Positions 12,940-44,600 of a DNA stretch of 64,000 nucleotides are shown here, in pieces. The stretch comes from Macrostomum lignano. Lineage: Eukaryota. The position numbers were made by a program, and so were the translations under genes. Position 1 is the first letter of the stretch. Each line of letters opens with the position of its first letter. The stretch is from assembly GCA_002269645.1 (NCBI GenBank), contig NIVC01001580.1, positions 180,791 through 244,790 on the forward strand. Direction: 5' to 3'. A model generated the notes under the pieces. It had not been told where the DNA came from. It was given only the letters and a program-made list of their open reading frames with translations, and searched no databases.

Positions 12940-13746
12940 AACTCCGGATCCCCTTCGCGGTGGAAGGAGGCTTCGGAGTGGCTCTGGCCGTACGGCGGCA
13001 TCGGTGAGCAAATCGGCACTGAGCTCTGGAGCAGCTACCAGTCCGTTGAAGTCAAAGCAGATTCCCTAGCCTACTTTTCGAGTTGCGCGAGCATTCGCCT
13101 GATCAGATTTAGCTGGCGCCATCAGGTACGCTGCCACAAGCCCTAGGTCAGATGCTTTCTGATTCCAACTCTGATTCTGTTGCTTCTGTGTGCGACACTC
13201 GTAATCCAACCGCATCATCTTCGGCCGATCAAAGCCAAGGTCGAACAGTTCGCTAACCCGAGCATAAAAAGCGAATATACTCAACCAGCTCCGACACATC
13301 CACGGTTCCCGTCTCGGAAAGACGCGCCAGCTTGCAGTCATGCAACATGTGAATCAGCGCGTTCGCGTTTCCAATAATCCAGTCACCGAATGACATTGAC
13401 TCAACAGCCGCTGACTTTGACTTCATACTCACTCGGCCCGATTTATCGACTGTGGTGGCCAACCCGGCATCCTTCTGCTCACGGCTACTTAGGTGTTCCA
13501 CCGGCCTGTGTGCCCCTCCGGCAACTGTCCCTTCTGACTCAAGGTTAGGGCCTTCATTCAAAACCCTCTCAAAAAGGCACGACATCTCACCGGGCGGATC
13601 ATTGCGTCTCCGTAAATCGAGCGTCAGCTTCTAGAGCGGCTTCTTGCTTGCGTAGAGTCAGGAGGCGCACCCCTTCTCCGCGAGCTCCTCGTGGGCCTCT
13701 CCACGTCCTCTGCCTTTTGCTATTTCTGGAACTGTTATCCGTGTCT
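12940..13746 (-). mobile_element. Decayed DIRS/Ngaro-like (tyrosine-recombinase retroelement) gag, 3' half, interrupted by the Polinton
   Basis: Frameshifted fragments read ...MRLDYECRTQ..QNQSWN...DL and GICFDFNG.GSCSRAQCRFAHRCR..GQSH, similar to the DIRS/Ngaro gag YD..FR...W and Cys/His motifs. Continues from the SAP ORF at 39948-40277. Confidence 0.5.
13578..13746 (+). repeat. Left copy of the 169-bp direct duplication flanking the Polinton
   Basis: Matches 39927-40095 with a single substitution (CACCCCTT versus CACCCTTT). Confidence 0.95.
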
Positions 13747-13747
13747 G

Positions 13748-14087
13748 AGTAGTAGGGCGAATTATGATACTGCCGCACTAGCACTGGCGAGATAGGCGGC
13801 AATGCAAATGTATAGGGAAAAATACACTGCGGAGATATGAGCCCTATCTCTGTGCATTGGGGACGGCTAAGCACTGCAGAGATATGAGCTCTATCTCTGT
13901 GCATTGGGGACGGCTAAGCACTGCAGAGATATGAGCTCTATCTCTGTGCATTGGGGACGGCTAAGCACTGCAGAGATATGAGCTCTATCTCTGTGCATTG
14001 GGGACGGCTAAGCACTGCAGAGATATGAGCTCTATCTCTGTGCATTGGGGACGGCTAAGCACTGCAGAGATATGAGCTCTATCTCTG
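13748..14087 (+). repeat. Left TIR of the Polinton, with six 47-bp internal repeats
   Basis: Reverse complement of 39587-39926; repeat unit GAGATATGAGCTCTATCTCTGTGCATTGGGGACGGCTAAGCACTGCA. Confidence 0.95.
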
Positions 14088-14461: not shown

Positions 14462-14469
14462 TATATAAG
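14462..14469 (+). promoter_or_regulatory. TATA box (TATATAAG) for the left-arm ORF
   Basis: About 100 nt upstream of the ATG at 14571; mirrored by a TATATAAG at the right end. Confidence 0.5.
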
Positions 14470-17693: not shown

Positions 17694-20600
17694 ATGGTCC
17701 GAATAAGAGATGGGGAGATGCTTGCCGAAGAGGACAGATGGATAAGCTGTAAAATGCAGGCCCTAGACCTAGGTGGTGAAGCAGGCCGTTTAAACAACTG
17801 GTTGATTGAGCAGGAGCAGGAGTTGGAGAGGATCTGTAGTATGATTAATACGAACGGCAGTGGCTGGACAATTAAACAAATTAATTTTCTAGACATCAAC
17901 CTTGCCAGGTACAATCCAATTCGATTTCGCCAGGGCAGAGCCGTTAGATTCAATCTTCCTGCCAGTTTGAAGAACAAAAAGGCTGTTATCAATCCACCGA
18001 GCACAGGCAAAGACTGTTTCCTGTACGCCTGTCTCGCTGCACTGCACAGCGCCGATCCGAAAGTTCAGAAATCGCCCAACAGAATATCCTCTTACGATGA
18101 ATGGTTGCGTGAGCTGGACTTTGCAGAAATCTCCATGCCAGTGAGTGTCGCTGATATCGATCGCGTCGAGTCTAACAATCCAGGAATTTGCATTTCTGCG
18201 TTCTCTTGGCAGCAGGGCAGTGTGACTCTTCTCCGTCGCCGCAAGCATGAGTCAGATGACCGAAGACACCTCATGCTTTTGCTAGTTAAAGACAGCTACG
18301 GATCGGAGCACTGGTGTGCAATTACTAATTTTGACAGGTTAATGAACAGTCGTAATGGTCCCGCCATGAGGAAGTGGTGCACGAAATGTTTAACATCATT
18401 TTATAGCAACGAGAGGCTTCAAGAGCACAGGAACGAATGCAGCATTACTGCAGAAAATCCTGTCAAAGAAACGCTTCCAGTTCCAGGACAGAATGAAATA
18501 AAGTTCCGAAACTGTCAAAACACTGTCAGTCCACCATTCGTTGCCTATGCCGACCTGGAAGCCATTTTGCGAGCGAACACAGACCCTGCTAACCTGATCT
18601 CAAAGCATGAACCATGTGCAGCAGCTTTTCTTGCAGTGCCTCGTGAAGGCATGACAGGACCTCCGCTTAGGCCAGAAGGAGACATGTACAAGGTCTTTTG
18701 CAATGCGGACCCTGATGAGTGTATCCTTGGTTTTCTCAAATCTCTTGAAAGCCTGGCTCAGGATATATTTCACTGGAACCAGAAGCATAGCCACCAGCCG
18801 GCTGACCGATCATCCGCGACCGTCATGGATGATTTCAATTCTGCTGAGGTATGTCACTACTGCAAGAAGAACTTTAAAAGTTCTACAGATAAACATTTTG
18901 ACCACGATCATTTAAATGGACAGTACAAAGGTGCAGCATGTCAAGAATGCAACCTGCGAGCACAGCTCCGACGCCGGTTTCTGCCCCTGGTTTTTCACAA
19001 CTTAGGCGGCTACGACCTTCATCTTCTACTTTCCACTGCGCTTGGGAGCATGAAAAATTGGAAACTTAGTGTTGTTCCGCAATCATCCGAGCGATACTTG
19101 TCACTAAGGGCGGAATTCCCTGTTGCAAGTTACGTAAAGAACGGAAAAGTTGTGCCAATCATGTTTACAATTCAGTTCATCGACTCGCTCTGCTTTTTGA
19201 AGGGAAGTTTGTCCAATTTGTTTGCTAATCTTCCCGAAGCTGAATGCAAGCTGACAATGCAAATGCTTGAGTCAAGACCACATCTTTCAAGAGAGCTACT
19301 TCGAAAAAAAGGGATTTTCCCATATGATTACCTCACAGGATTTGAGATTCTCGAGCAGTCGGTTTTGCCGCCTAAAGATGCTTTTTTTAATCGACTTTCC
19401 GATCGGGGAATTTCCGACGACGACTACAATAGAGCAAGAGCGGCATGGGCGGCATTTCAATGCAAAAGTTTGAAGGATTATATGCTCGCCTATCTTGAAA
19501 TGGATGTAAGGCAGCTGGCTGACATTTTCGAGACATTCCGACAGGCCAGTCTGAAAGAGGACGGATTGGATCCGGTACACTACTTTACTACTCCTGGTTT
19601 GTCTTACGACTCAGCTCTAAAGTCGACTGGAGTGGTTCTAGAGCAGCTGACTGATGCTGACATGTATCATCTGTTTGAGAAGGGAATACGAGGAGGCATG
19701 TCCTTCATTAATGTGCATTGCGTCAAAGGTAATAATCCTAGCTTGCCAGGTTATGATGATCAGCAAGAGAGTGTAAGCCTCATGCCGATCGATATGAACA
19801 ACTTGTATGGCTTTGCCCTGTCGCTTCCGCTTCCATGCAGGGAATTCAGGTGGGTACCGGAACAGGAAATCCAGTTCTGGGACTCCAATCGGTTTCTGTC
19901 ACTCAATCCAGAAGCCGAGATCGCCTACCTTGTTCAACTCGATCTAGAATACCCAGCTGAGATTCACGATTCGACTCAGGAGTTACCGTTTGCACCTGAA
20001 AAATCAAAACCACAGCCAGATCAATTCTCGCCGTACATGGCCGAACTATGGAAAGAGATTGCTGAACAGCGAACTGGCAATGCTGAAGCTAAGTTTCAAG
20101 CAACGGAGAAGCTTCTACTCACCTGTACCGACAAGGATTCTTACGTAGTTCACAGCACCGTTTTAAGATTTTACCTGCAACACGGAATGCGGATCAAGTG
20201 CGTCAAAAAAATGATTTCGTTCAAGCAGGAAAATATTTTCGCGCCGTACATTGCCAGCAACAATGAAAAAAGAGCTTTGGCAACTTCCGAGTTTGCTAAG
20301 GATTTTTACAAATTGAAAAACAATTCTCTCTTTGGAAAAACTATGGAGAACGTTCGAAAAAGATGCGATGTTCGAATTTGCACTAACCAGACTCAAGCAG
20401 AAACTTGCGCCTCTCGACCAAACTGTGCCGCATTCTCGATTATCAATGAGTCGTTGAGCATTTTTCAGCTCAAAAAAGATAAAGTCACGCTTGACAAGGC
20501 CATTTTCGTTGGCCAGGCAGTTCTCGATCTCTCTAAGATGGCCATGTACAGCCTACTATATGACAGGCTCCGACCGCTGTTCTGTCATTCAGACGGTTCC

Positions 20601-21152
20601 AGAGACATGATGCTTTGCGGAGGTGATACTGACTCATTTTTTCTAGCTTTCAAGAATCATGATTTAACATCGGAGGTAATCCCGAAGCTTAGAGAGGAAA
20701 AAATACTTGACACATCCAACTATTCTCGAGACCATCCGCATTTCTCTGAAGAGTTAAAAGGAAAGCTGGGCTGCGTTAAAGATGAATCTGCTGGTGGAAT
20801 TTACCAGGAGTGGATTCTTTTGCGTCCAAAACTTTATTCGTTTCTCCCTGCCGAGAATTCGAGTGCAAAGATCAAGAAAACTGCCAAAGGCGTGAAGCAG
20901 TCAGTAGTAAGACAGCAAATTTCGCATGCGAACTATGTCGACGCGTTCGAGTCCAAGCAAGAGCAGATGGTTGCCATGACAGCGATTGTTTCCAAGAAAC
21001 ACGAAATCTTCACGTCGGTCATGGAGAAAAGAAGCCTATCGGTGTGGGAGGATAAGCGAGTGTGGCTTAGCAGTAATCGAAGCCTGCCCTACGGACACTA
21101 TGCGCTGACGCCCGCATCCCACGATCAGCTGAAGCGCATCCGACTGGTCTAG
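17694..21152 (+). CDS. pPolB: Protein-primed family B DNA polymerase (pPolB) with an inserted endonuclease-VII-like Zn domain
   Basis: Exo motifs YADLEA, FHNLGGYD, FIDS and KGIFPYDY; polymerase motifs DMNNLYG, KLKNNSLFGK and GDTDS; CHYC...DHDHLNGQYKGAACQECN insert. The frame is open upstream to 17490. Confidence 0.96.
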   Translation: MVRIRDGEMLAEEDRWISCKMQALDLGGEAGRLNNWLIEQEQELERICSMINTNGSGWTIKQINFLDINLARYNPIRFRQGRAVRFNLPASLKNKKAVINPPSTGKDCFLYACLAALHSADPKVQKSPNRISSYDEWLRELDFAEISMPVSVADIDRVESNNPGICISAFSWQQGSVTLLRRRKHESDDRRHLMLLLVKDSYGSEHWCAITNFDRLMNSRNGPAMRKWCTKCLTSFYSNERLQEHRNECSITAENPVKETLPVPGQNEIKFRNCQNTVSPPFVAYADLEAILRANTDPANLISKHEPCAAAFLAVPREGMTGPPLRPEGDMYKVFCNADPDECILGFLKSLESLAQDIFHWNQKHSHQPADRSSATVMDDFNSAEVCHYCKKNFKSSTDKHFDHDHLNGQYKGAACQECNLRAQLRRRFLPLVFHNLGGYDLHLLLSTALGSMKNWKLSVVPQSSERYLSLRAEFPVASYVKNGKVVPIMFTIQFIDSLCFLKGSLSNLFANLPEAECKLTMQMLESRPHLSRELLRKKGIFPYDYLTGFEILEQSVLPPKDAFFNRLSDRGISDDDYNRARAAWAAFQCKSLKDYMLAYLEMDVRQLADIFETFRQASLKEDGLDPVHYFTTPGLSYDSALKSTGVVLEQLTDADMYHLFEKGIRGGMSFINVHCVKGNNPSLPGYDDQQESVSLMPIDMNNLYGFALSLPLPCREFRWVPEQEIQFWDSNRFLSLNPEAEIAYLVQLDLEYPAEIHDSTQELPFAPEKSKPQPDQFSPYMAELWKEIAEQRTGNAEAKFQATEKLLLTCTDKDSYVVHSTVLRFYLQHGMRIKCVKKMISFKQENIFAPYIASNNEKRALATSEFAKDFYKLKNNSLFGKTMENVRKRCDVRICTNQTQAETCASRPNCAAFSIINESLSIFQLKKDKVTLDKAIFVGQAVLDLSKMAMYSLLYDRLRPLFCHSDGSRDMMLCGGDTDSFFLAFKNHDLTSEVIPKLREEKILDTSNYSRDHPHFSEELKGKLGCVKDESAGGIYQEWILLRPKLYSFLPAENSSAKIKKTAKGVKQSVVRQQISHANYVDAFESKQEQMVAMTAIVSKKHEIFTSVMEKRSLSVWEDKRVWLSSNRSLPYGHYALTPASHDQLKRIRLV

Positions 21153-22735: not shown

Positions 22736-24394
22736 TCACTCGTTCTCCTTGGCCTTGTGCTTCCGCGTCGGGTCCAAGGCATGAAGAAGGACATGCTTAA
22801 TGTCAGAGTTCACTTGCGCCTCGGTCACATTCAGGTTGCTGTTTTTTAAGGCTAGCTGTACTAGACTGTGCACAGCAGACTCTTCAAAGCGCCGCTTGTC
22901 CTTCGTTCCCTTGAACGTAAACTTCGCCAGCGCATCGGGATCAAAGAGGCGGCGGAGGAGCTGGCGGGTAGCCTCTCGGGAGGTCCTTCCGCCAAGTCTC
23001 GAGAGCTGCTGAGCCTGCAAACGATCAAGTATGGTAAGTCAAGTTAGAATGAAGCCCACAATTATGAGCGTAATAAATCTGGCAATTAAAAATACCAAGC
23101 TTTAGTAACGAGAAACCTAGCCGTATGCATTTTGGAAGCACGAAAAGTCAATGCTATTCATCCTTACCAATTTGACCAAATTTTCTTTCTTCTGCAGCCA
23201 AGCGTTTAGCTGATCGATTCCGGCATCCCCATTGACGGGAATGCTGAATGGTAGATCCTCAGCAGCCAAACGTGGGGTAAGAGTCTCTGTCAGCTGACGT
23301 GCTACGCCATCTACGATTGTCCGAATTGTGGCCAGCTCGCGGAGCACACGTCTTTCGAACGCTGCAAAAAAAGAATTGATCTCACATAAGCTGCACTCGA
23401 ATCGTTGTCCAATGATTGTAATTTACTATCAGCAGCAAAAAAGCCGCATGTTTTGGGAGTAGAACTCACATGACAATTCCATTCGCACTTCTGAACACCG
23501 TGATGTGCAACGCTGACTACCTACAGGTGTATTGACTGGTTCAGAGTTCTGACCTGCAGAATAGAACAGAGAGAATTGAGAAAACAAATTAAAAACTTGA
23601 GAAATAAATGCATGTATTTGGCACTTACTTGAATCAAGTTGAGAATAGACTTCAGAGGCTTCGATTTCTTCCCTTAGAGTTGAGAATGAGGTCGGCACAC
23701 GTTCCTTGGACAACTCATGAGTAAGGGTACAAGGCGTTGAAGCTGACGCTGACACGGAAGCTGACGCTGACACGGAAGCTGACGCTGACACTGGAGCTGA
23801 CGCTGAGGCTGACGCTGGAGCTGACGCTGAAGCCAAGACTGAAGGTGAAGCAAAAGTTGACCCTGAGATACAGGGGAAGGAAGGTGGATCTCTCAAACCA
23901 GAATTCAGATTTGCACGCTTAGGAGAATTTTCTTCGGAATCGGGTTCATTGTCAGAACTCGATTCCACCCTCTTTTTTCGTTGCCTATTGCCTTCCTCTA
24001 TGAAGCGCTTGGTCTTCGATCTTCTTCTTCTCTTGTCGAGATCAGTACTTTCGATTTCACCATCTTTAATGTAGCGGCTGAGTCTTCGTCGCGCGCAAAG
24101 TTCATCTGCTGTAATGGGTTGGTTATAAAGATGTGGAGTAAAAGTCAATCATCTTTGACTTGAATCGATCATTTGGTGCAAATAGTACTTACAGCATCGA
24201 GACAGCACAACAACAGGGTGTCTTTCCCATGTCTCTTCAGGGGTAGAAGCTCGGGTGCGCAAGGACTCCAGTTTGGACTTAGAAACTGATGGCCATAAGC
24301 ACTGCGTGAGCCCAATCATCCACGCCTCTGGAACATACTCCACTAACTTTAGACTCGAGTCTACATTGTTTTGGAACTCGACAACCAGATACAT
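22736..24394 (-). CDS. EnSpm accessory gene (multi-exon; C-terminal DUF4806-like domain)
   Basis: Exon-like ORFs at 24149-24394, 23429-24148, 23117-23347 and 22736-23020. The last reads LGGRTSREATRQLLRRLFDPDALAKFTFKGTKDKRRF, typical of accessory genes of animal EnSpm elements. Exon boundaries not resolved. Confidence 0.6.
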
Positions 24395-24409
24395 CTGAAG
24401 AGAGAGACT

Positions 24410-26425: not shown

Positions 26426-28398
26426 AGCTTTTTATAATAAAAAATTAATTAAAAATAAGATTATAAATAGTTTTAATGAAAACTGTTAACTATATCCTTT
26501 GGCTTTATATACTTATTAATACTAAATTATTTTAAAATATACAAAAATATTTAATAATTATTGTTGACCTATTAAACAATAAAAATAACCTTATAACCTA
26601 TCTATATCTTTTTATTTTTATTAGCCTATTCTTTATCTTTTGGCAAGTTTTACTAAGGAAATTAAGTGAGTGAGTAAATGAGTGAGTAAGTGTAAGTGAA
26701 TAAGCAAGTGAATAAGCTATAAGCACTAATATAGAATTTTAGAATTTAGGTAGGCCTAAGCTTCGATAATGTTAGGCCTAAACTAGATCTTAGGCCTATT
26801 GAAAGTTGAAATTTTTTAAATTTAAAAAAGTTAAAAATTTAAAATAGACCAGTTTACAAGTATACAAAAAATTGCATATACAATACTAGTGCCTATATAT
26901 AATATGAACCAATTATACAAAAATTTAATTTGAGTAAGTAGGCTATATAGTAAGTAGGCCTACACAAAGACAAGTATCAAACTTCAAAGGGTACAATGCA
27001 ATTTAAATGTCAATAATTATTTTTAAGAATCAATAGAAATTGGTAGATTCAGAAAATAAAGGAAAGTTTTGAAATTAAAACTGTTAAAAGGCATTAATCC
27101 ATAAAGATAGGGCGGCTTGATACCATAACACGAGCACTGAATCTGAATCTGAATATTGAGATTATTGCCCAGCTGGCTGCCACTGGCGCTAAGCCTAGCA
27201 CAGTTAAGGAGTTCTTTGACCAAATGTAAAGAATAATAATCGTAAGAATAAGTAAGATATTGGCAGTTCTATTTGAGAAAGCAAATCACTATTTGAAATT
27301 AATTCGTAAAACTTAAAAAGAGCTCATTGAACGATTAAGATCCGAAGATGTAATTAGGGAGGAAATACGTTTTGAAAATAAGCTGTCAGCCATATTTGTT
27401 AGCTGTTATTATAACAAACGTACATATGTTTATTTTTAAACATTTACTTGTAAATATAAAACAAAAATTCTTGAAATATCTTAATAGTTTTAAAAGCTAA
27501 AATAGTTTCTAATTAAAATCTTATAAAGTAAAAATATCAATCCGGGTAACTGACATCTCGCCATCATCATCCCACTTGTAATATAAATTTTGCCGACGAA
27601 AAAAATTCAGTTTTTATATCATTTTTTAAATAATTAAATGCACAGAACTTTTTGTTCCTGCCAAAACTCGCTATAGCGCGCGCGATTTGCAGTGCATTCT
27701 CTCAATCTTCGTCATTCCATGGATTCGAGTGGGATTCACCCCCAAATATCGCAATTGCAATTCGATCTCTCATGGCGATTCTCTATATGACCTGGCGGCT
27801 TTCCAAGAGGGGGACTGTATAACGGCAAATGGTTATCGCGCTGCGATGGATCGGCGAGAATTTTGCGCATCGCATGGGCGACACATAGGCGAACCTCGCC
27901 TAAAATATATCAAGGCGATACTTTGGCGATTGCGAGGGAACTTTTTTTTACACGAAAACGAATGTTATGGTTGCTTTTTAATAGACTAAAACTCACTTTT
28001 ATGGCGTAATTTGAATTCAACTGCAAGTAAAAAACAATGCGATCTTAACAAACGTAGCGATATCGCCTCGGTATCAATCGGCGATATATCGCCCCTTACA
28101 GCCCGGCGGGGAGTGAGCGATATCGAGGCGATTTTTTTGGTTATGTGGGTAGGGCTGTAGCTGGTGGGCTCATTTCGATCGTCAACTTCTTCACCAAATC
28201 TGCTTCTGCCAACTTTACTGCTCGTGTGCCACGGACACTGCTCGCTTCTTAAGTTGATGCAGAACTTTGGCTTAAGCCAACTGTAGTGCAGCAACGAATT
28301 TCTCACTGCACAGCCAGTATCTGAATCTTCAGTCGAGGGTGCTCCCAAATCTTCTAGGTTATAAACCTGTCTACCAAGCAGCTCAGTCAGGAAAATAG

Positions 28399-31280
<2,882 letters not shown>

Positions 31281-31283
<3 letters not shown>

Positions 31284-32235
31284 CTGTCTGCCTGGGAAAA
31301 TGAATGTAAAGAATACCAAGTTTATCCTTTTATTCACTTTTCACTAATCATTGAAATATTTGCGGCAAATTGCTTGACTTGACTTTATTTTTATTCAATG
31401 GAAAGAACTACATTGAGTAGACGCATGCTATCGGTATGCAACTGATTCAAGGACCGAGCTCCACTGAGAACAAAAGAGCCGCTGTGAAAAAGCAGACATT
31501 TACAAAAGTTTAAATTGAAAATTAAAGCAGAAAAGGATTCTGGTTCATATTCGGCGTTTGGGATAATTGATTTTAACATTAATAAGGAAAGTGCGGAATG
31601 AACTGGGAGCTGTCCATGAGCAGTAATAGTTTTAATTCGAACACAAATTGTTTGATGAGGCAGCAGTTGAGCCGGCACTCTCCGATGCAGCATAGCCACG
31701 AAGCGACGGGCAGCCCTTTTGGCGTCTGCGTGGGTCTTGGCACCGCAGATGCTCAGTTGCCCAGTAGGGTAGAGTAGGAGAGTCACTCTGGGAATCCGCA
31801 TCCGCTTGATGAGCACCCGGGGCCAGACGGGCCGGTAGATCACATGAGCCATGCTGAGAGCCAGTTCCCGTAGAGGCAGCTGAGCGCCCCTGCCACCATC
31901 CAGTCTCAGATCTACTCCGCCAACCAGATTGGTCACTCTTAGGGCTGTAGCTGGTGGGCTCATTTCGATCGTCAACTTCTTCACCAAATCTGCTTCTGCC
32001 AACTTTACTGCTCGTGTGCCACGGACACTGCTCGCTTCTTAAGTTGATGCAGAACTTTGGCTTAAGCCAACTGTAGTGCAGCAACGAATTTCTCACTGCA
32101 CAGCCAGTATCTGAATCTTCAGTCGAGGGTGCTCCCAAATCTTCTAGGTTATAAACCTGTCTACCAAGCAGCTCAGTCAGGAAAATAGACTTCCTTTCCC
32201 CATTTGACCAGATCGGACCACTGGCAATGCTCAGA
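31281..32235. repeat. Right copy of the 955-bp duplication flanking the LINE
   Basis: Begins at the LINE tail and ends at ...CAATGCTCAGA, the same point at which the left copy meets the LINE 5' end. Confidence 0.93.
31391..31963 (-). CDS. Polinton-encoded TATA-binding-protein-like protein (190 aa, intact copy)
   Basis: Two TBP pseudo-repeats: VTNLVGGVDL...YRPVWPRVLIKRMRIPRVTLLLYPTGQLSICGAK...AKRAARRF and YEPESFSALIF...LLFHSGSFVLSGAR, compared with TBP [34 protein letters not shown] and YEPELFPGLIY...LIFVSGKVVLTGAK. Confidence 0.85.
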   Translation of the reverse strand: MSPPATALRVTNLVGGVDLRLDGGRGAQLPLRELALSMAHVIYRPVWPRVLIKRMRIPRVTLLLYPTGQLSICGAKTHADAKRAARRFVAMLHRRVPAQLLPHQTICVRIKTITAHGQLPVHSALSLLMLKSIIPNAEYEPESFSALIFNLNFCKCLLFHSGSFVLSGARSLNQLHTDSMRLLNVVLSIE

Positions 32236-32483
32236 ATGTCTTCCGCCAGTTCCATGTACGGACGGGTTCCATCATTCCACTTAAACTGGTGCAGACTCTT
32301 AGATAGCTGTCTGTAGTAAACTCGCATGTCAGGTGAGACTCTCTCCCATGGATACGGAGGTGCGTACACATGGTGAGCAATGTGGTAGCTCCCCGCTCTG
32401 ATTTGAACAACTGCCAACTCCTTCACAACAAATTTTTTGCTTGTGCTGTTGCACGGGAATCCTTGGAAGTCAATGTAGTTCAT
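31632..32483 (-). CDS. Polinton accessory protein with a DEDD-exonuclease-like N-terminus
   Basis: IDFQGF...FVVKELAV...PPYPW...H..KWNDG...Y...LEDLG.P resembles a recurrent Polinton accessory family. The C-terminal third overlaps the TBP gene in another frame. Confidence 0.6.
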   Translation of the reverse strand: MNYIDFQGFPCNSTSKKFVVKELAVVQIRAGSYHIAHHVYAPPYPWERVSPDMRVYYRQLSKSLHQFKWNDGTRPYMELAEDILSIASGPIWSNGERKSIFLTELLGRQVYNLEDLGAPSTEDSDTGCAVRNSLLHYSWLKPKFCINLRSEQCPWHTSSKVGRSRFGEEVDDRNEPTSYSPKSDQSGWRSRSETGWWQGRSAASTGTGSQHGSCDLPARLAPGAHQADADSQSDSPTLPYWATEHLRCQDPRRRQKGCPSLRGYAASESAGSTAASSNNLCSN

Positions 32484-32512: not shown

Positions 32513-33205
32513 TCAGTCCACCTTCTTATATACTTTTCTGGCAGGCAATTTCAGCCAGGCTGTGTTGCTCCCGTACCCCTTGACTAGACTCTCCTGTTCT
32601 TTCTCCAGTTCACCCCCTCTGCTGGTTGCCATTTTCTTCTTAACTGATTTACCAACAGCGGAAAGCGGAACATTAAGCTTTTTCTGCTGCAGAAAATCGA
32701 TGAACTCGTTCCACCCAACTGGTTCACGCTCACATGGCGAATCCCTCACTGCGTGCTGAATCAAGTCCAGTATGTTTGAGGAAGGGATTGACGTGCCTGC
32801 GATTTCCACCTCCCCGTTTTCACAAACTCGAATCAGCTCTGGATTGGTGGACAGGATCGTCCACAGACTGCGAGCCCTGGTTTTGAATTTCTGTGGCACC
32901 GACTTGCTGATCTTCTCTTCCCAGGTGCTTATCTGGGGTGTCTCTGTTTTCATCAACTTGGCTTCAGTATTGCGTGCTCCTTCTTTTCCAGCGTGCTTGC
33001 GCTTGGCCAGCAAACTTTGCATTGCACTTTGGTACATGGCGGTTTTCACATCTTCTGGACAATCCTCGGCATACAAGATGTCATCGCATTTCTTCTGAGC
33101 CTGCTTCAAGTCAGCTTCAGTGGTAGTCTCATTTGGCTTCAAATTCTGCATCAACATCTCATACTCTGCTTTAGGAATCAGAACCATTTCTGAAAATTTG
33201 TTCAT
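32513..33205 (-). CDS. Conserved Polinton protein of unknown function
   Basis: MVLIP..EY...VPQKFKTRARSL...GEVEIAG..IPSSNILDLI...PVGW.EF...L...NVPLS matches a family I recall from Mavericks; located within the compact operon-like block. Confidence 0.65.
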   Translation of the reverse strand: MNKFSEMVLIPKAEYEMLMQNLKPNETTTEADLKQAQKKCDDILYAEDCPEDVKTAMYQSAMQSLLAKRKHAGKEGARNTEAKLMKTETPQISTWEEKISKSVPQKFKTRARSLWTILSTNPELIRVCENGEVEIAGTSIPSSNILDLIQHAVRDSPCEREPVGWNEFIDFLQQKKLNVPLSAVGKSVKKKMATSRGGELEKEQESLVKGYGSNTAWLKLPARKVYKKVD

Positions 33206-33542: not shown

Positions 33543-33929
33543 TCACTTTCTTAAGCAAATACAAGATGGGGTCGCTGGTTGGGCAGAATTCTGGCCCAAT
33601 TCTGGCAAAAAATTTCGCATTGAAGCAGAGTTTGAAGTTTCCTCTATTAAGTCATCGAAAACAACCAGGTCATTGGGCCTAAGTGCTGCCTCGATGTTGG
33701 TGGGAAATCCCTGGCGCAGCTGCACACCTAGGCTGTTCAGTTCTGCATGGCCTGCCTGTGAGATCCCATAGTACCACAGAACTCTGCCAGGCTTCACATC
33801 AAACATGACGTCTCTGTACTGGATCAGGTGTTCGACAAAGGTTGTTTTTCCTGCATTGGTGGGCCCGCAGACAATCATGCAGCTTCCCTGCCTGAGGCGG
33901 ATATCGTAGCAAACTTGCTTTTCTCCCAT
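33543..33929 (-). pseudogene. Packaging ATPase (FtsK/A32-like), apparently C-terminally truncated
   Basis: Walker A GPTNAGKT and Walker B LVVFDDL, but only 128 aa. No recognisable downstream arginine-finger half in the frames I read. Confidence 0.75.
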
Positions 33930-33952: not shown

Positions 33953-34465
33953 TCACGGACATCTTTTTCTTAAGTTGGCTTCAAACCTCTGTAAGATTCT
34001 ATCATTCAAATGATTTTTCTCATTAGCATGCAAATGCTTCAAAATCCCCTCAAATGACCGATTGAACAGAAACTTTTGATAAGCAAAATAGATGCAAAAC
34101 ATTCCGCATTTATTAGAGTTAGCACATTGAACTCTGTTTATATTGCTTCGGAGCCAAAAGCCAGTTGTTTTAATCTCTCGAAACAAATTATAAACCAAAG
34201 ATAAAATTTCAGGTTCCCAGCCGAGGGAGTTGAACAACTCAATGCGATTTCCTTGCCCAACATAGCACACCACCCAGTGACCAAATGAGCCATTGTGCTG
34301 AAGTAGGACAAAAACAAACTTGTTTTCAAAGGAAATTGATGATCTAAATTTTCTTTTTACATTCAAGGGCAGAGAATTTTTATAGCGCAAATGTAAAGTA
34401 ACTATGAGAAATTTTTGGTAAGGCAAAAATTTTCTGGCGAGATTAAGTAGTTGAATTGCATCCAT
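33953..34465 (-). CDS. Adenain-like cysteine maturation protease (peptidase C5)
   Basis: GHW...ELFNSLG...VQ....NKCGMFCIYF; lies adjacent to the MCP gene. Confidence 0.88.
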   Translation of the reverse strand: MDAIQLLNLARKFLPYQKFLIVTLHLRYKNSLPLNVKRKFRSSISFENKFVFVLLQHNGSFGHWVVCYVGQGNRIELFNSLGWEPEILSLVYNLFREIKTTGFWLRSNINRVQCANSNKCGMFCIYFAYQKFLFNRSFEGILKHLHANEKNHLNDRILQRFEANLRKRCP

Positions 34466-35756: not shown

Positions 35757-36134
35757 CTATGACAGAGAGTCGAGCACGCGTTTCACAGTTTTCTTGCTGA
35801 CTTTTTGCTTTCGCTTTCCTCCGCCTGCTCTATTCTTCTTTGCTTTCGTCTTCCTATTCTTAAGCTTTTTCCCACTAGCCTTGCTCGACCTCTTACTGCG
35901 ATTTCCACCAGTTGCCTTTCGGGTGCCCTTCTTTTTCTTCAATCGTTTCGGACTTGCTTCAGTATTTCTTTTGCGCCTGACGTTGCTAAGCGTCGAGGCT
36001 GATGATGATGATATAGCCGCTGGCGGAGGCTGGTATGTCATGATCCCTGGGAAGCTCCCACAGCCATAGAGTGCAGGCTTTTCGTGTCCTGTCCTCACCC
36101 CCGAATATTGCTGGATTAGCTGCTGGTAGTTCAT
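35757..36134 (-). CDS. Lys/Arg-rich putative virion core (DNA-condensing) protein
   Basis: Its ATG overlaps the penton stop (ATGA) and its stop lies 2 nt before the MCP ATG. Very basic C-terminus; LYGCG fits the adenain site (M/L/I)xGx/G. Confidence 0.65.
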   Translation of the reverse strand: MNYQQLIQQYSGVRTGHEKPALYGCGSFPGIMTYQPPPAAISSSSASTLSNVRRKRNTEASPKRLKKKKGTRKATGGNRSKRSSKASGKKLKNRKTKAKKNRAGGGKRKQKVSKKTVKRVLDSLS

Positions 36135-36949
36135 TGAATGCGTTTCTCCTGAATTTGAACTGTAAGCAGAACAGGGCTGTGAGTCTGTGCAATCAGTGGG
36201 CAACCATAGATGTCCCGCAGCTGAACTCGAATGCTGTGAAGAAGACTGATTCGTTGAATCGGGAAGAATATTGTTTTCTTAAATATTTTTGTTTGATAGT
36301 TGCCCCATTCAATGCCAGCTTTCATTCCAACTGTTCTCAACAAGGAGCTCCAGTTGCAATTAGTTGACTCAACGATACTGCAGTGCACATTGATTAAGCT
36401 GGTGCGCGGGCAGCCAATGCAATGCTCGGATACGCGGCTCCCTGGCTGGATTTTCACAGCCTGGTTTCCAAATCCCAGCCAATGCAGAATTTTACTAGAT
36501 GGAAGAAACAGCTCTGCTCTCGCAGTGTTGTTGTGCACCACAGTTCGTGAGTTGCGGATTTCGAACTTCATACCAAATTCCCTGTTGCCACTACGCCCCA
36601 TCAGGCCGGACTCATCAGCCTCCATCTCAGACTCCCTGTCACTCATTGCATCAAAGAACAGCGAATCAGAGTTGGCCAGCAGCTCATTCAGGCGCTCCAC
36701 CAGCTCCTCCACTCTAGCAAAGCGTCCGGGTTGAAGAACCAGGGCCTCATGCTCTCTTCCATCTGAGACAGTGAAGCAGTAAGGCTCGTCAACATTGAAC
36801 CATGCAGCAGGCAGATGGATTTCAGCCAGACCTGCCTCATAGTCCACATTTCGATCCAAGTAAATAGGTGAAGGCAGGTAAAAATTAAAGTCACTAGGAG
36901 TACCTTCAGCATGCTCACTGTTAATCAAAATAGTTCGCATTATAATCAT
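36131..36949 (-). CDS. Minor capsid protein (penton, single jelly-roll/PX)
   Basis: SDFNFYLPSPIYL...YEAGLAEIHLP..WFN...LGF...VHCSIVE...LLRTV...I.V.LRD..G. Confidence 0.85.
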   Translation of the reverse strand: MIIMRTILINSEHAEGTPSDFNFYLPSPIYLDRNVDYEAGLAEIHLPAAWFNVDEPYCFTVSDGREHEALVLQPGRFARVEELVERLNELLANSDSLFFDAMSDRESEMEADESGLMGRSGNREFGMKFEIRNSRTVVHNNTARAELFLPSSKILHWLGFGNQAVKIQPGSRVSEHCIGCPRTSLINVHCSIVESTNCNWSSLLRTVGMKAGIEWGNYQTKIFKKTIFFPIQRISLLHSIRVQLRDIYGCPLIAQTHSPVLLTVQIQEKRIQ

Positions 36950-36977: not shown

Positions 36978-38048
36978 CTAAACCTTTCTTAAGTCTTTTT
37001 CATCCACCCAGCCAGTCGAGTCGTAGCCCGCCCATTTCACCAGATAGCGAATTTTTCCCTTCCGCTTCTCCGTTTTCAGGATCTTCTCAATCACATACAG
37101 CCGCTGTGAGTCCGGGACAGCCTGCAGCTCGTGCTCATGGAAGAGTCCTCGAATCTCTTGCCCCCGCATGTCTTTAATCTTGTACATGTAGGGATAATGT
37201 TTTGGGGCTCTGCTCACCACGGTGTACACTTCCTCACTCCAGCTCGCTTTGTATCCCTTTTTGAATATCCGTGGAGCATTGGAAATTCTCACTGACTGGT
37301 TTTCAGCGAACTTAGGCTTCTTTAATTTTTCTAGAGTCTCGACTGCTTTTCCATCGTACAGGTTCATCCACACTTCAGATTCATTCTCTTTGCAGACACT
37401 AGTGGGTGCCATTTTGATGCTTCTGTGGTAGGTATTGTTGTAGGATTTTACCAGCTTAGGCAGCACATCAAGCCAGTGCAGTGTGCTCTTGTAGGTGAAG
37501 TAGCGCCACATTCTACTTTTCAGAGTTCGATTCCATCGCTCAATGACAGCTGCCTTCTGCTCGCTGTTAGTTGGGAAAGCCAGAATCCCTCTGTCAATGC
37601 AGTATTGACGGAAAGTGGAGTTGATAAATTCCTTCCCCTGATCTGTGCGAACTGTGCGTGGCTGGCGCTTTGAACTTCTCAGTATGCTCTCGAATGCTGA
37701 CTTCACTTCTGCAGCAGATTTATTTTTCAGTGCCTTGGCCCAAGCACATTTTGAGAGCACGTCAATGCATGTGAGAATATATTTGTAGCCTTTATTATGC
37801 TTTGCGAATGGAATCATTTCCACTAAGTCAAGTTCCCACTGATCATCGATTGCGCGCACTATGATTGGGGCCCTTGGATATCGCCTCCTAGCTGGCTTGT
37901 GCAGAGTGTGCACTGGCTGCTCGCTGAGCCACTGCTCAATGCTCTTTGCAGATATTCGATCACCTCTTTGCCTCACTTCATGCAGCAACTTTGAGGCACA
38001 AGAAAAACTAGCCGGTTGCTCAGGTTTCAAATAAATTTTCTCCATCAT
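36978..38048 (-). CDS. Retroviral-like integrase with C-terminal chromodomain (Polinton c-INT)
   Basis: DDQWELDL...IDVLSK, TDQGKEF and ERWNRTLK (DDE intact); KPKF...VRIS...FKKGY...W; IEKIL...YLVKWAGY...WV. Confidence 0.95.
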   Translation of the reverse strand: MMEKIYLKPEQPASFSCASKLLHEVRQRGDRISAKSIEQWLSEQPVHTLHKPARRRYPRAPIIVRAIDDQWELDLVEMIPFAKHNKGYKYILTCIDVLSKCAWAKALKNKSAAEVKSAFESILRSSKRQPRTVRTDQGKEFINSTFRQYCIDRGILAFPTNSEQKAAVIERWNRTLKSRMWRYFTYKSTLHWLDVLPKLVKSYNNTYHRSIKMAPTSVCKENESEVWMNLYDGKAVETLEKLKKPKFAENQSVRISNAPRIFKKGYKASWSEEVYTVVSRAPKHYPYMYKIKDMRGQEIRGLFHEHELQAVPDSQRLYVIEKILKTEKRKGKIRYLVKWAGYDSTGWVDEKDLRKV

Positions 38049-38368
38049 GGGTTTATCAAGATACGTGCCTATCCACCTGCTCTAGCTGTACAGTATTTTT
38101 TCTTAAGTAGAAATTTATATTCCAATTAAATGATAGAGAAACGAGTGGCAAATTAATTTATTACTGTCAGATTGAAACCTCTAACATCGTAACAGTCGGT
38201 GTATTTTCCGAAAGCAAACAATCCATAAAAACGAACACTAAAACACTCGCACACCAGCATTTCAGAAATAGCAGAGATAAAAAACAGCATAGTGCCGTCA
38301 GGCTGGATAATCATGTGCAAGCTAAAAGTAATTTAGTTAGTCCAATGCATTCAAAGCATTCTAGCTGT

Positions 38369-39145
38369 TCAGTTATCAAAGCGAACATTGGGCTGCAGCC
38401 TCATCGCGTCCTGCCGACGAAGTTGAAATGGCAGCTTTCGCTTCCTGCTGCTGCTGCTCACCGTCGAAGCCGCTGCATGCGCCCTGAACTGATACCACAC
38501 CGGATCTTCCTCAAGGTTGGTGTCCCGCTGCGGAAGCAGTCCAGCATCAGAATCAACCGAAGGTATCGGTGTGGATGTGATTGGCTCAGTCACAATGCGC
38601 GGCCTTGTGGGCGAGCTAACGTCCTCGTCATCAGCATGATCTCCGCCCTCATCAGTCTCCATTATGGGCTTCGTGTCCTGGTCAGCCTCCAACTTGAGCT
38701 TCTTGTCCTCTTCCTCCTCTTCCTCATCAGACTCCAGCTCGTACTGCATTGTGTTCCTCAAGGGAGCCACCAGCTGACCGTCGATCCAGGAGGCGATTTT
38801 CCAGAGCTTCTGCCACAGCGGCGGAGTCAGTGGTACGGCGTTTCGTCTCAAAAACTCCTCGCAGCAATCTTCCGGCAGCCGTTTGAGCCAAATGATGCCG
38901 CCTTTGACTTCCACAAACTTATCGAAGCCGAGTTTCACGACCTTGGGCTCGTTGTTGCGTGCAGAAATCACAAGTGAGCGTTTCACCTCCTTCAATTTCT
39001 TCCATTGGTGAACATTCAGGTTGAATCCTGGGACGCCTGGCTTCAGACTTGCCGTGCTGCCGTGTCGGTAAAACTTGCGAATAGCGATAAATTTTTGTCC
39101 TTCAAACTCCTGGACTTGTGCCTTATAGCCTTCACAGATGTCCAT
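38369..39145 (-). CDS. Tandem PC4/Sub1-like ssDNA-binding or transcription coactivator protein with an acidic tail
   Basis: AQVQEFEGQKFIAIRKFY...LKPGVPGFNLNVHQWKKLKE resembles PC4 VSVRDFKGKVLIDIREYW...[20 protein letters not shown]. A second, degenerate copy follows (KFVEV...IWLKR...VPLTPPLWQKL). Confidence 0.8.
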   Translation of the reverse strand: MDICEGYKAQVQEFEGQKFIAIRKFYRHGSTASLKPGVPGFNLNVHQWKKLKEVKRSLVISARNNEPKVVKLGFDKFVEVKGGIIWLKRLPEDCCEEFLRRNAVPLTPPLWQKLWKIASWIDGQLVAPLRNTMQYELESDEEEEEEDKKLKLEADQDTKPIMETDEGGDHADDEDVSSPTRPRIVTEPITSTPIPSVDSDAGLLPQRDTNLEEDPVWYQFRAHAAASTVSSSSRKRKLPFQLRRQDAMRLQPNVRFDN

Positions 39146-39249: not shown

Positions 39250-39257
39250 CTTATATA
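39250..39257 (-). promoter_or_regulatory. TATA box (TATATAAG) for the right-arm PC4-like gene
   Basis: About 105 nt upstream of the ATG at 39145; a CCAAT-type motif lies near 39306 and within the adjacent repeats. Confidence 0.5.
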
Positions 39258-39352
39258 CCCTCGACCGAACCACCCCAAACCACCCATCCCACTCCGGGCT
39301 CTGTGATTGGCTCTTTCGCAAACATTATTTCCAATTACATAGATTAACATCT

Positions 39353-39586: not shown

Positions 39587-39926
39587 CAGAGATAGAGCTC
39601 ATATCTCTGCAGTGCTTAGCCGTCCCCAATGCACAGAGATAGAGCTCATATCTCTGCAGTGCTTAGCCGTCCCCAATGCACAGAGATAGAGCTCATATCT
39701 CTGCAGTGCTTAGCCGTCCCCAATGCACAGAGATAGAGCTCATATCTCTGCAGTGCTTAGCCGTCCCCAATGCACAGAGATAGAGCTCATATCTCTGCAG
39801 TGCTTAGCCGTCCCCAATGCACAGAGATAGGGCTCATATCTCCGCAGTGTATTTTTCCCTATACATTTGCATTGCCGCCTATCTCGCCAGTGCTAGTGCG
39901 GCAGTATCATAATTCGCCCTACTACT
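39587..39926 (-). repeat. Right TIR of the Polinton
   Basis: Reverse complement of 13748-14087; ends ...CCCTACTACT. Confidence 0.95.
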
Positions 39927-40277
39927 CACGACATCTCACCGGGCGGATCATTGCGTCTCCGTAAATCGAGCGTCAGCTTCTAGAGCGGCTTCTTGCTTGC
40001 GTAGAGTCAGGAGGCGCACCCTTTCTCCGCGAGCTCCTCGTGGGCCTCTCCACGTCCTCTGCCTTTTGCTATTTCTGGAACTGTTATCCGTGTCTAGTTC
40101 TTCTCGACGTGGGTCAGTCGGGGCGTTGAGTTCCAGTTGCGTTGCTTCGTGGTGAGCAGCCAAGCGTTCCCTGAGTACTGCCTTACGGCCGTTTGTAGAG
40201 AGATCTGCCTGTCTAAGCGCGGCCTTCAGGCCTTTCACAGTCTCGGGCATATGCACTCTGTGGTTTGAGACAGCCAT
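39927..40277 (-). mobile_element. 5' half of the interrupted DIRS/Ngaro-like gag with an N-terminal SAP domain (includes the right 169-bp duplicate, 39927-40095)
   Basis: TVKGLKAALRQADLSTNGRKAVLRERL is a SAP motif; the sequence is continuous with 13746 and below. Confidence 0.6.
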
Positions 40278-40451
40278 TGCTACGCGGGGGTAAAAAAAAT
40301 CAACGCAGCGAGAACAAGCGATTTCAGCTCAAAACAAGGCCTAAAGGGCACAGAACACAACCAACCACCCACCCCAACGCCGCAAACCCACCCCCCACGC
40401 GTGGAGCCAAACAACCCCACGTTAGTCCACGCTGTACAAGTCGGCTAGGCA

Positions 40452-41450
40452 AACCGGTCAGACAGCACAATACTGATAGAACAGACAGCACAATACTGAT
40501 AGAACAGACAGCACAATACTGATAGAACAGACAGCACAATACTGATAGAACAGACAGCACAATACTGATAGAACAGACAGCACAATACTGATAGAACAGA
40601 CAGCACAATACTGATAGAACAGACAGCACAATACTGATAGAACAGACAGCACAATACTGATAGAACAGACAGCACAATACTGATAGAACAGACAGCACAA
40701 TACTGATAGAACAGACAGTACAATGCTGATAGAACAGACAGTACAATACTGATAGAACAGACAGTACAATACTGATAGAACAGACAGTACAATACTGATA
40801 GAACAGACAGTACAATGCTGATAGAACAGACAGCACAATACTGATAGAACAGACAGTACAATGCTGATAGAACAGACAGTACAATACTGATAGAACAGAC
40901 AGTACAATGCTGATAGAACAGACAGTACAATACTGATAGAACAGACAGTACAATACTGATAGAACAGACAGTACAATACTGATAGAACAGACAGTACAAT
41001 ACTGATAGAACAGACAGCACAATGCTGATAGAACAGACAGCACAATACGGATAGAACAGACAGCTCAATACTGATAGAACAGACAGCACAATACTGATAG
41101 AACAGACAGTACAATACTGATAGAACAGACAGTACAATGCTGATAGAGCACACAGCACAATACTGATAGAACAGACAGCTCAATACTGATAGAACAGTCA
41201 GTACAATACTGATAGAACAGACAGCTCAATACTGATAGAACAGACAGTACAATACTGATAGAACAGACAGTACAATACTGATAGAACAGACAGCACAATA
41301 CTGATAGAACAGACAGTACAATACTGATAGAACAGACAGTACAATACTGATAGAACAGACAGCACAATACTGATAGAACAGACAGCTCAATACTGATAGA
41401 ACAGACAGTACAATACTGATAGAACAGACAGTACAATACTGATAGAACAG
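40452..41450. repeat. 23-bp satellite (ACTGATAGAACAGACAGCACAAT)n, array 1
   Basis: Tandem copies read directly. Confidence 0.97.
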
Positions 41451-41685
41451 TTACTTAGTAGATTAAATCAGTATCAGTAATGAAACACTTCAGAAAAGCC
41501 TCATGCGCTCGTAGCAGCAAAACGTTAATGTTTTCAGCTGGTACTTCAATTTATTGGAAATCCGAGTCTAAAAACTTTGAATTAACTGCGAACAGCATCT
41601 GTATACGAGCGTATTGGCATAAGCATGTGAATAAGTAACTACTTCAATGAACAGAGTGCATTATTGCGTTGCTCAGTTTTGATGC

Positions 41686-44600
41686 TCAAACTTGCAGCAT
41701 CAGCCGCACTTCACGAAGAGACACAATAGTAGAGCCAGAGTGCCATATCATATAGCCGTAATTTCGTCTACCTCGCGAAGGAAAAAGTCCGTTAGGGTTG
41801 GCGTTATAGCAGTTTTTAAACCACCAGCCTCCTTTTCCAGGAGTGCTTGAGCATGAACCAGAGCCATTCTCCTTGTCCATCGTGGAGAACCGCATGCCTC
41901 TTTGGGTCTTCAACGCGTCAATGCTGACACTGGACCTGTCCCTCAGCATCTCTCGGTACGTCATCCGATACCCAGTGCTGGCGTCTCCCACCTGGAATCC
42001 CGCGTACTCCGCATGCAGCTCAGAGCCTCTCCACAGCTTCATCTCCACTCTGAGGGTGACGCCGCCCTGGCTGAGCGAGTGGATGGCGGAGAGACCTGCG
42101 GGAAGAGAGCGGCTGAGTCTGAGTCACTTCTGCTCGGCTTGTCGCCGCTGCAGCCAGGTGAGTCGCCATTCGGATGTTGAGTAAAATATTTTACCAGTGT
42201 GCGTTTCATAGCAGATAGTGGAACTAAACTGGTTTATTGCAAAAGCTAAATGTTCTATTTTAAGCCTTCTGATATCCCAGATGAGCAGCCTTTTTGCTTT
42301 TCTATTTCTGCAATTTGGGTTTTTAAATTGTATCAGATCAAGACGAATTGTCATCGAAATACTTCGGTTTGCATTCTTGACTGCGACTCAGAGCAATTAC
42401 TTGTCGGAGACAAGCGAACTTCAAACATTTTCAAAAGTACGTCATTCATCTATTATAAGGCTGTTATGAGGCTTTTTAATCTTATACATGGCATAAAAGG
42501 TGCAAATCTTTATTAGTTAAAAATGGCTTCAGTAACAGGCTTTCTGCAAACTGAAGAGAAATAAACGCAAAAACGAATTGGCTGGCGCTGCTCTGGCTGG
42601 CGCTGCTCTGGCTGGCGCTGCTCTGGCTGGCGCTGCTCTGGCTGGCGCTGCTCTGGCTGGTGCTACTCTGGCTGGTGCTGCTCTGGCTGGTGCTTCTCCA
42701 TTTCAACAAATGCACTGTGGTTGCCAACACAGCAAGCCCGCGTGTCTTGTTCGAACAGCTTGTGAAGGGCCGATCTGTTTTTTCACTGCTCTTCGCTTCA
42801 GATTAGCTTTGGGACTTCCATTTTTCGAAATTTTCTTTGTCTGAACGGAGTTTCAAAATCATTTTCATTGGTAAGTCCAGAAAACTTTTATCTTTCATTT
42901 TACTTCATCTGAAGCACACTATTGGATATCGACGGTCCTAGCGGTATAAAAACCACAGTCAGTCCACAGTCAAGACTGCACACACAGTCTTGAGCCAAGG
43001 AAACCCAAACTTGGATTCAGGACTCTCCTCGCACTCAGAACCGAAGAACGGATGGTCTCATCTTTTTGGTGAGCTCGAGGAAAATAATGGCAGCAGCTTA
43101 CTGGTTTACCTGAAGCAGCCCGAGGACCCGAAACGCAAATCAGTCGGGAAAGGTCAATGTAGAGCATTGCCGTCATGCCGCAAATTGGACTTAATATCCT
43201 ATTAAAAGGGCGGGCAGCTAAGCTTTTTATCAATCTTTCATCCGTTGAAAGTGCATGAGTCAACTAGCGTTTCATCATAAGATTCACATGATCAGCTACC
43301 ACTCCCGTTATACAATACGAGTATTAGTTGATGCAAAACTGCCGCTCACCGATCCAGAAGTCAGTGCCGTCACCGAACCCAGTCTCGTACTCAGTCCAGT
43401 TTCGTTGGAAACTCACTCTGCCGGTAAGTCGCTGCTGTATCTTCACAAACCAGCGACCGTCTGGAAGCATTTGAAACACCGCTGTGCGTTGGTCAGTGGC
43501 GCTGTGAAGCTTGGCGCAGGACTTCAGACTGGAGCAGCTGACTGCATCTTCAGACGCTTTCATTCTCCATGACGAATCGATTTGGCTGGACTTGGAGAGG
43601 CACTGCTCAGCAACCAGCGATTTCACCCGCCACTGCACGTGTCGCCACAGGTCAGCGGGCTCCGCCAGCAGAGCAGTCCTGGAAATCGTCAAATCCTTTC
43701 TTGAACGGTGCAGTTCTACATAGAGATCTCTACCTATAAAAATGAAAACTCTGTGTCTGTGTGTTCGCGATTGCCTTTGCCTTTTGAGGCAATTTGTTTT
43801 TGCCTCAAATCCTAATTTTACATGAATGTACTCTATTTTAAATTAACTCTATTCTAACTATTAACAAGTTTTTGTTTCAGTTTGACCTCAGATTGTAGAA
43901 TACATGCAAAAATAGTACTGTTTTCTCAGGGTTCAAAATGGAATTCCCTGGGTTTAATATCCGCGGGTTTCAACAGCTTGTTTCTTATAAATTACTATCA
44001 AATCAAATAATTCTATTGGATCCGATAGCTGAATAGCAACCAAGCTGGTACTGAAAGAATTTTTAGTACTCTCGCTAAGACAGCTAAGTCCTGCTCAGTA
44101 AATAACATCTATTTAACAAAACAAAAGCTTCAAATTTTGTCTAATGAAAGTTCAAACCTTCTTAGACAAAATGTCAGCTAACCTGAGATCGCGGCACTCC
44201 GTCAAGGTTCTGCAGAGCAGCCGCACCTGAGCGGACCTCCAGTCTGCCGACGCCATCAGCGGACCCACCTCGAACCGAGCACTCAACGAAGAGCTCACCG
44301 ACCTCTCAGCAGTCCATAGCCGCATGAAGTCGACCGAGCGAGGCGACAAGTCGGCCAACTGAGTCCTCACAGCATCGCGTGTGGCCTCATCTTGCAGCAC
44401 CAGATCCAGCTTCAGGTAGTGCATGTCTCGGCTGTAGTCATACCTGACTGACTCGCTGCTCAAGCTGGAGATGTTGTGGCACAGCAGAGGCTCGATGAGA
44501 AAGTGGCCCTCAATGTCGAGTGTCTGGTGCACTCGGGCAGAGCAGTTCTCTAGTTTGACGGTGCGGATGAATTTCAGCTGTCGGCATGTCGGCAGAGGTA

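Follow-up and report, generated by a model that had tools for sequence, protein, structure and literature searches.

A fused PC4-like protein in a Maverick of Macrostomum lignano: a probable replication protein, and a viral TBP with its own candidate promoter box

In a 64,000-nt stretch of the Macrostomum lignano genome (hereafter the window; contig NIVC01001580.1 of assembly GCA_002269645.1), we found a Maverick/Polinton whose right arm opens with a PC4-like gene (38369..39145, minus strand) that is real and conserved. By our preferred reading, to which we assign a probability of about 0.55, its 258-aa product is a single-chain PC4 pseudo-dimer that would be made early from a host-type TATA promoter and would coat the displaced strand during protein-primed copying, with the TBP of the element acting separately, at a TAAGAA box.

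Results

Structure of the element

The element is bounded by 342-nt terminal inverted repeats (13746..14087 and 39587..39928, from arm-to-arm alignment) whose arms are 100% identical. It carries the hallmarks of the Maverick/Polinton (adintovirus) class, namely a protein-primed PolB, a retroviral-type integrase, an adenain-like protease and AGT-type inverted ends, the end motif matching that given for Mavericks/Polintons (PMC8097293). Pfam supports the polymerase gene (17694..21152, plus strand; DNA_pol_B_2, E 2e-12), the integrase, the protease, the PC4-like gene and a TBP-like gene (31391..31963, minus strand), whose second copy (21735-22292) is the product of a local duplication. The putative capsid genes, major (double jelly-roll) and minor (single jelly-roll), had no Pfam match; we take them to be such from their place in the gene order and from 23% similarity to a gene of another Maverick, and the names of the small inner ORFs are likewise presumed from gene order. 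The family to which the element belongs (family A) is large, with at least 150 PC4 matches at 100% to 35% identity (all 150 of the candidates scored, of 283), and an annotated Macrostomum lignano protein is 99% identical to the TBP of the element.

The studied copy is damaged by nested transposase and reverse transcriptase genes together with local duplication, and its ATPase gene is ~260 nt shorter than in other copies. The nested inserts lie within 21625-31941 (transposase-like ORF 24410-26425; RT-RNase H ORF 28477-31191), and segments of 661 and 296 nt near them are duplicated at 100%. A public contig spans the polymerase-to-TBP region without the inserts, which are possibly a haplotype or assembly effect; coverage between polymerase and TBP was thinner in one sequencing run, which we do not count as evidence. 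At the flanks of this one copy a 6-bp target-site duplication was not found, and a direct duplication of 172-173 nt (99%; 13578-13750 and 39927-40098) flanks the element in its place. A SAP-domain ORF (39948-40277) is encoded in the flank, and a long 23-nt tandem array (about 40300-44000) adjoins the right flank. In several subfamilies the open frame of the polymerase continues upstream beyond the first ATG (17251-17700 in the window), with a strong splice-donor-like site at about 17271; the sequence suggests that the 5' end of the polymerase may be spliced, and the sequencing-run contigs contained no splice joint there.

The PC4-like protein

The PC4-like ORF is the first inward of the right terminal inverted repeat, and so it is indeed the first gene of the right arm, as an earlier note on this DNA had it. 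That note also described the protein as having two domains, and on this point Pfam (repeat 1), an hhalign profile (repeat 2) and the AlphaFold2 fold agree. Within repeat 1 (residues 1-63; 38957..39145, minus strand), residues 8-53 match Pfam PC4 (PF02229) with E 5.5e-8 and 32.6 bits versus a cut-off of 25. The diverged repeat 2 (residues 64-130; 38756..38956, minus strand) had no Pfam match; compared with a profile of 196 cellular PC4 repeats (the host PC4 and 195 others) it reached an hhalign probability of 92%, the best of 30 column shuffles reaching 4.9%. Because its direct profile match to repeat 1 is weak (2.6%), the assignment of repeat 2 rests on the cellular-repeat profile and the model. 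The AlphaFold2 model, made from six sequences, has a pLDDT of 87 and two beta4-alpha units, so that the PC4 fold has both a profile match over cut-off and a predicted structure behind it.

Repeat 1 superposes on human PC4 with an rmsd of 1.3 Å over 64 residues, and its F14, R23 and Y26 are the equivalents of human F77, R86 and W89, the W89 register being set through a W89Y structure in the alignment. Repeat 2 lacks these residues, and nothing aromatic stands at its W89 position. Stacking on DNA is done in PC4 by F77 and W89, with Y as the yeast form (PMC9600219). Cellular PC4/Sub1/MoSub1 (PF02229; PDB 1pcf, 6ycs, 4bhm) is thus superposable on repeat 1 with the stacking residues kept; unlike it, the element's protein fuses two repeats, the second diverged, has no N-terminal SEAC/Lys-rich region, and adds a long acidic linker and a basic tip. 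In the model the PC4 domain starts as early as residue 2. In the PC4 of the host, by contrast, about 75 Ser/acidic/Lys-rich residues come ahead of the domain, a region that in human PC4 carries the phosphorylation control of coactivation (PMC9409219). Both traits of a metazoan PC4 coactivator, the N-terminal region and the single-domain homodimer, are therefore absent from this two-repeat chain.

The acidic tail reported earlier proved to be internal: 21 of the 45 residues of a poorly conserved linker (residues 131-175; 38621..38755, minus strand) are D/E, and the last 48 residues of the protein carry a net basic charge (9 K/R, 5 D/E). Family A conserves several motifs in this C-terminal part (D-P-x-W-Y, a basic RKRK-like patch and L-R-R-x-x-A-M/I; 38396..38527, minus strand), which are not clearly retained in family B, the second PC4-bearing family described below. 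We assume a resemblance between the conserved L-R-R-Q-x-A-M/I motif (38396-38430) and pseudosubstrate inhibitors of CaMKII-type kinases. The basic tip with its family A motifs could be a protein-docking or activation module; the C-terminal region of yeast Sub1 is used in elongation (PMC9600219). Both repeats are under purifying selection, with pN of 0.05-0.21 and pS of 0.63-0.96 in ten pairs from five subfamilies, among which synonymous sites are near or at saturation.

Among viral proteins the best fold match, covering both repeats, was to MOSUB of a Branchiostoma lancelet adintovirus (UniProt A0A5H3CIS2; E 4.6e-6, TM 0.76, 155 columns), which comes from the same class of element and is 15% identical. 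Its label occurs once, in the text layer of Supplementary Fig. S2 of Starrett et al. 2021 (PMC8502044), and is absent from the main text; the available parts of that paper discuss neither a function, nor a promoter, nor a TBP link for it. As far as found, 'MOSUB', 'SSDBP' and 'TBP' appear in published Mavericks only as map labels (PMC8502044), and in the accessible text of PMC11662393 PC4 is a cluster label only. Since MOSUB is the best viral match, a PC4-like gene is already labelled in the adintovirus group, and what is new here is the fused, trimmed form of PC4. The beta4-alpha-linker-beta4-alpha order is the topology of single-chain PC4-like domains (PMC7549692), which the protein has in common with PURA repeats I-II, Whirly and MRP1/2. 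PURA matched with TM 0.50-0.59, and the PC4 homolog of phage T5, employed in replication (PMC7549692), matched over 58 columns. By sequence repeat 1 is clearly of the PC4 family, not PUR or Whirly, and its context is a eukaryotic protein-primed virus.

About eight metagenome proteins, on contigs of up to 2.6 kb, have the same tandem layout, and none of ten tandem or multi-PC4 proteins examined, these eight among them, had a viral context. An Atlas search returned PC4 clusters at 0.86-0.88, which are leads only. Viral and metagenome contigs scanned with PC4, TBP and capsid alignments yielded no relatives; integrase scans yielded five partial loci, too short to show absence, with TBP or PC4 matches at 0/5.

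Terminal promoters

The earlier note had reported an identical TATATAAG ahead of both arms, which holds: motif search and copy comparison place this canonical TATA box at 14462..14469 (plus strand), before the first left-arm ORF (14571-15971, plus strand), and at 39250..39257 (minus strand), before PC4, 109 and 112 nt from the first ATGs. Neither box is part of the perfect inverted repeat, and the sequence around them cannot be aligned between the arms. In the window TATATAAG has six matches versus 1.1 expected, three of the six within the element. Among 27 copies examined, 24 have a TATA box 46-112 nt ahead of the PC4 start, in unalignable flanks, and the three copies without it all have a broken PC4 frame. 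In nine non-redundant PC4 promoters taken from these copies, the three misses excluded, TATAWAA was present in 9/9, where 300 shuffles gave 0.5 on average and 3 at most. The PC4 boxes vary among subfamilies (TATATAAG, TATATAAA, TATAAAAG, TATATAAT); in the left arm, where the first ORF was located in 11/22 loci, six have TATATAAG, three a TATATATA run and two a weaker variant. The terminal boxes are thus real, vary within the canonical consensus and are host-type promoters.

Promoter comparison adds what we take to be a CCAAT box (39306-39310, minus strand) and a GT/CACCC-box-like element (39280-39295, minus strand; several other subfamilies have it the other way round) near the PC4 promoter. 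Being canonical and accompanied by these elements, the terminal boxes need no viral factor. This bears on the transcription module of TBP, PC4 and TATATAAG proposed in the earlier note, of which the fold, the position and the conserved TATA stood, and the co-occurrence and box specificity did not. Taken literally, with viral TBP and PC4 acting jointly on the two TATATAAG boxes, the module is very improbable: the boxes are conserved before both first genes, as it would have it, but they are canonical and variable among subfamilies, PC4 is itself the product of one of the two, and the second DNA-contact strand of the viral TBP carries conserved changes (see below).

In family B the inverted repeat, 1033 nt long and 99.7% identical, includes a TATA box, so that each end of the element has a copy: one faces PC4 from a distance of 46 nt, the other faces the polymerase from 97 nt. 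Contigs from 4 + 4 sequencing runs (six different runs) cover both stretches without joints, and as they run through the TATA box they are uninformative on start sites.

TBP and PC4 among Maverick families

Further Maverick families in the genome were found with a distant capsid query, and 11 sites were taken, eight of which had an inverted-repeat pair at their borders. TBP-like frames were present at 10/11 of these sites (profile E 3e-3 to 5e-7; of four run against Pfam, two were over the cut-off, one just under and one without a match), PC4 at 0/11 (profiles without filters, E <= 0.05, 5606 frames), and a polymerase at 3/11 (families C, E and G). In family B the genes for TBP and PC4 are adjacent and their products 38% and 35% identical to those of the window element. 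PC4 without TBP is thus unseen in the genome, as both PC4-bearing families (A and B) also have TBP. Co-occurrence in the about 150 family A matches was left out as evidence because it reflects shared descent. An obligate pairing of TBP and PC4 across families, which the module would imply, is contradicted by these counts.

A very diverged PC4 could have been overlooked in other families. A 117-aa ORF of family H is weakly PC4-like (hhalign 8%, shuffles up to 0.8%) and had no match in the Atlas. Family H copies measure about 10.5 kb between repeats, with no polymerase found, and start with a Fic-domain gene (E 5e-14) followed by this acidic-tipped ORF (L131:9330-9998, L112:144-497).

At the three polymerase-bearing sites and two more family G sites, an unrelated gene lies upstream of TBP (L116:1683-2863 in C, L126:3392-4618 in G, L120:6458-7635 in E; spliced in database predictions) and has no counterpart in families A and B (3924 frames). 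In family C it comes first behind the repeat and a TATATAAG, the place that PC4 has in A and B; in family G its position is about 4.6 kb inward, downstream of a canonical TATA. It had no Pfam, PDB or fold match (model pLDDT 51), and we presume a likeness to T7 gp2.5-type proteins. It may replace PC4 as a candidate alternative ssDNA-binding protein.

Other features of these families are recorded here as side observations. In family E, TBP and a deoxynucleoside kinase domain (Pfam dNK, E 7e-24; L120:4940-6346) are encoded in a single frame, and families C and G have kinase-like ORFs and ORFs that we take to be dUTPase-like (L116:3971-4650, L106:144-619). The family B integrase gene has an intron-like interruption near its 5' end in two copies (L035:1705-2929).

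Inner promoters and the viral TBP

A motif search of the inner right arm located TAAGAA, on the minus strand throughout, before the integrase gene (36978-38048; box 38100..38105), the putative minor capsid gene (36986..36991), a small basic gene (35757-36134; box 36276..36281), the putative major capsid gene (35857..35862), the packaging ATPase gene (33967..33972), a 112-aa gene (33548..33553), ORF 31632-32483 (two boxes, 32637-32642 and 32523-32528, the latter coinciding with the third TATATAAG inside the element) and the TBP gene (32036..32041). All nine matches are in sense and none in antisense orientation, all within 160 nt of a start, and they precede 8/10 genes (binomial p 1.6e-6, the motif and the 160-nt distance having been picked after inspecting the data). 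The box is retained in three other family A subfamilies. In family B, 7/7 matches are near starts and 6/10 genes have one (p 2e-5), including an integrase site unseen when the motif was chosen. Where gene tails overlap, TAAGAA is present in 5/7 versus 1.3 expected from synonymous shuffles (p 0.0008), and it is therefore not forced by the overlapping protein.

Only families A and B use a TAAGAA-type box. The commonest 7-mer is TATAAGC in families C, E and G (before 3/7, 3/8 and 5/9 genes) and TATAAAT in families F and H (before 6/8 genes each), the last two having a TBP and a canonical TATAAATA.

The presence of a TBP gene, also claimed earlier, is confirmed by Pfam (PF00352, E 8e-25, 87 bits, two repeats over cut-off), the two copies having arisen through duplication. 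The protein is a minimal two-repeat TBP of 190 aa that retains the E-P-E-x-F stirrup, which in TBP serves TFIIB binding. At what we take to be the positions of the four intercalating phenylalanines and two central asparagines, F144, F159 and N12 are invariant, the other Phe sites are Y65 and W47 or P48 by register, and the second central Asn is replaced by T112 in all viral rows. The second DNA-contact strand reads K-T-I-T and is conserved, compared to Q/E-N in host and archaeal TBP. ORF 31632-32483 ahead of TBP, presumably exonuclease-like, overlaps the TBP gene by 330-390 nt in a different frame, as does the corresponding ORF of family B (L035:7220-8101); TBP repeat 1, which it overlaps, is the better conserved repeat in both families.

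Judging from these sequences, TAAGAA is likely a better candidate target of the viral TBP than the terminal TATATAAG boxes, and transcription control by the element would likely run through TBP and TAAGAA rather than PC4 and TATATAAG. A strict TBP switch is counted against by TAAGAA standing ahead of the family A TBP gene itself, by the canonical box of families F and H, and by a partial Maverick with no TBP found that has TATA-like boxes before 6/7 genes, in AT-rich DNA.

The fact that the TAAGAA-type box is confined to the same two families that keep PC4 and TBP together, families only about 40% alike, also speaks for the PC4-like protein as an early coactivator that helps viral TBP and host RNA polymerase II to open TAAGAA promoters, with ssDNA binding as a possible second function. 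TFIIA and TFIIB are partners of cellular PC4/Sub1 (PMC9409219), the viral TBP keeps its stirrup, and the D-P-x-W-Y and basic C-terminal motifs are conserved in family A. However, these tail motifs are not clearly retained in family B, the N-terminal regulatory region of cellular PC4 is missing, and 10/11 sites of other families have a TBP without a detectable PC4; we consider the coactivator role unlikely.

A viral TBP-like protein with an altered TATA before structural genes, and a canonical TATA before early genes, is also the pattern of beta/gamma-herpesviruses, whose late transcription uses a viral TBP mimic (KSHV ORF24, EBV BcRF1) and a TATT box (PMC6541308). The variant box of the element is similarly enriched before structural genes. 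Unlike the herpesvirus system, the element has a minimal 190-aa two-repeat TBP, no other initiation factors were found in it, and its TBP-box binding is only predicted. MELD viruses have a TBP-labelled gene in an element with an adintovirus-like polymerase (PMC8502044, Fig. 5 legend), a legend entry alone, with no promoter motif or PC4 link in the available text.

Discussion

As an alternative to the module, the earlier note had proposed that the PC4-like protein is the SSB for the protein-primed polymerase, and this is the better reading: the residues and the family B promoter fit it, and ssDNA binding, early timing and a replication role are likely. Protein-primed viruses usually have their own ssDNA-binding protein (adenovirus, phi29, Bam35). 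The replication role is favoured because repeat 1 keeps the equivalents of F77, R86 and W89 (the last as Y), because the family B TATA serves both PC4 and the polymerase, and because the best viral fold match is MOSUB and phage T5 uses its PC4 homolog in replication; it is favoured over coactivation because the N-terminal regulatory region of cellular PC4 is lacking. Separate action of TBP is favoured by the enrichment of TAAGAA before the inner genes of families A and B, and by the other families in which TBP occurs with no detectable PC4. Under this replication reading, host TFIID would fire the terminal promoters, the PC4-like protein and the polymerase would be the first products, the pseudo-dimer would bind the displaced strand via repeat 1 with repeat 2 as a scaffold, the basic tip might serve import of the protein or docking of a partner, and TBP would then favour the TAAGAA genes.

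Single-stranded or structured DNA might also be bound for other ends, such as protecting the repeat-rich termini, or a single-stranded intermediate after excision, against host repair and sensing, or the protein might be a dominant decoy of host PC4. The termini are composed of tandem repeats, internally deleted family B copies without polymerase retain the PC4 gene, and cellular PC4 is active in repair and G-quadruplex handling (reference titles in PMC9409219). Yet positional reasons keep terminal genes in internally deleted copies, and the AlphaFold2 model suggests that a fused pseudo-dimer would be an unlikely partner of host PC4 monomers, which leaves shielding or decoy quite improbable.

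Beyond the replication role itself, we tentatively propose, as possible though short of probable, a full two-stage virus programme of animal Mavericks within 15-25 kb. Terminal host-type TATA boxes would first yield the polymerase together with a single-strand-binding protein that is interchangeable among families, with a fused PC4 pair serving in A and B and an unrelated one in C, E and G; a private TBP acting on a family-specific box (TTAAGAA, ATAAGAA, TATAAGC, TATAAATA) would then yield the virion and integration genes, and in families A and B PC4 may also couple replication to the late switch. Our literature search, which lay largely outside subscription journals, found no paper assigning an ssDNA-binding protein or a promoter cascade to animal Mavericks, and none on the arrangement of PC4, TBP and promoter motif in Polintons. 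With a small, well-folded PC4 pseudo-dimer and a TBP of 190 aa that has a candidate box, both questions are within reach of work on purified proteins. If true, such an early/late programme would strengthen the case for Mavericks as real viruses.
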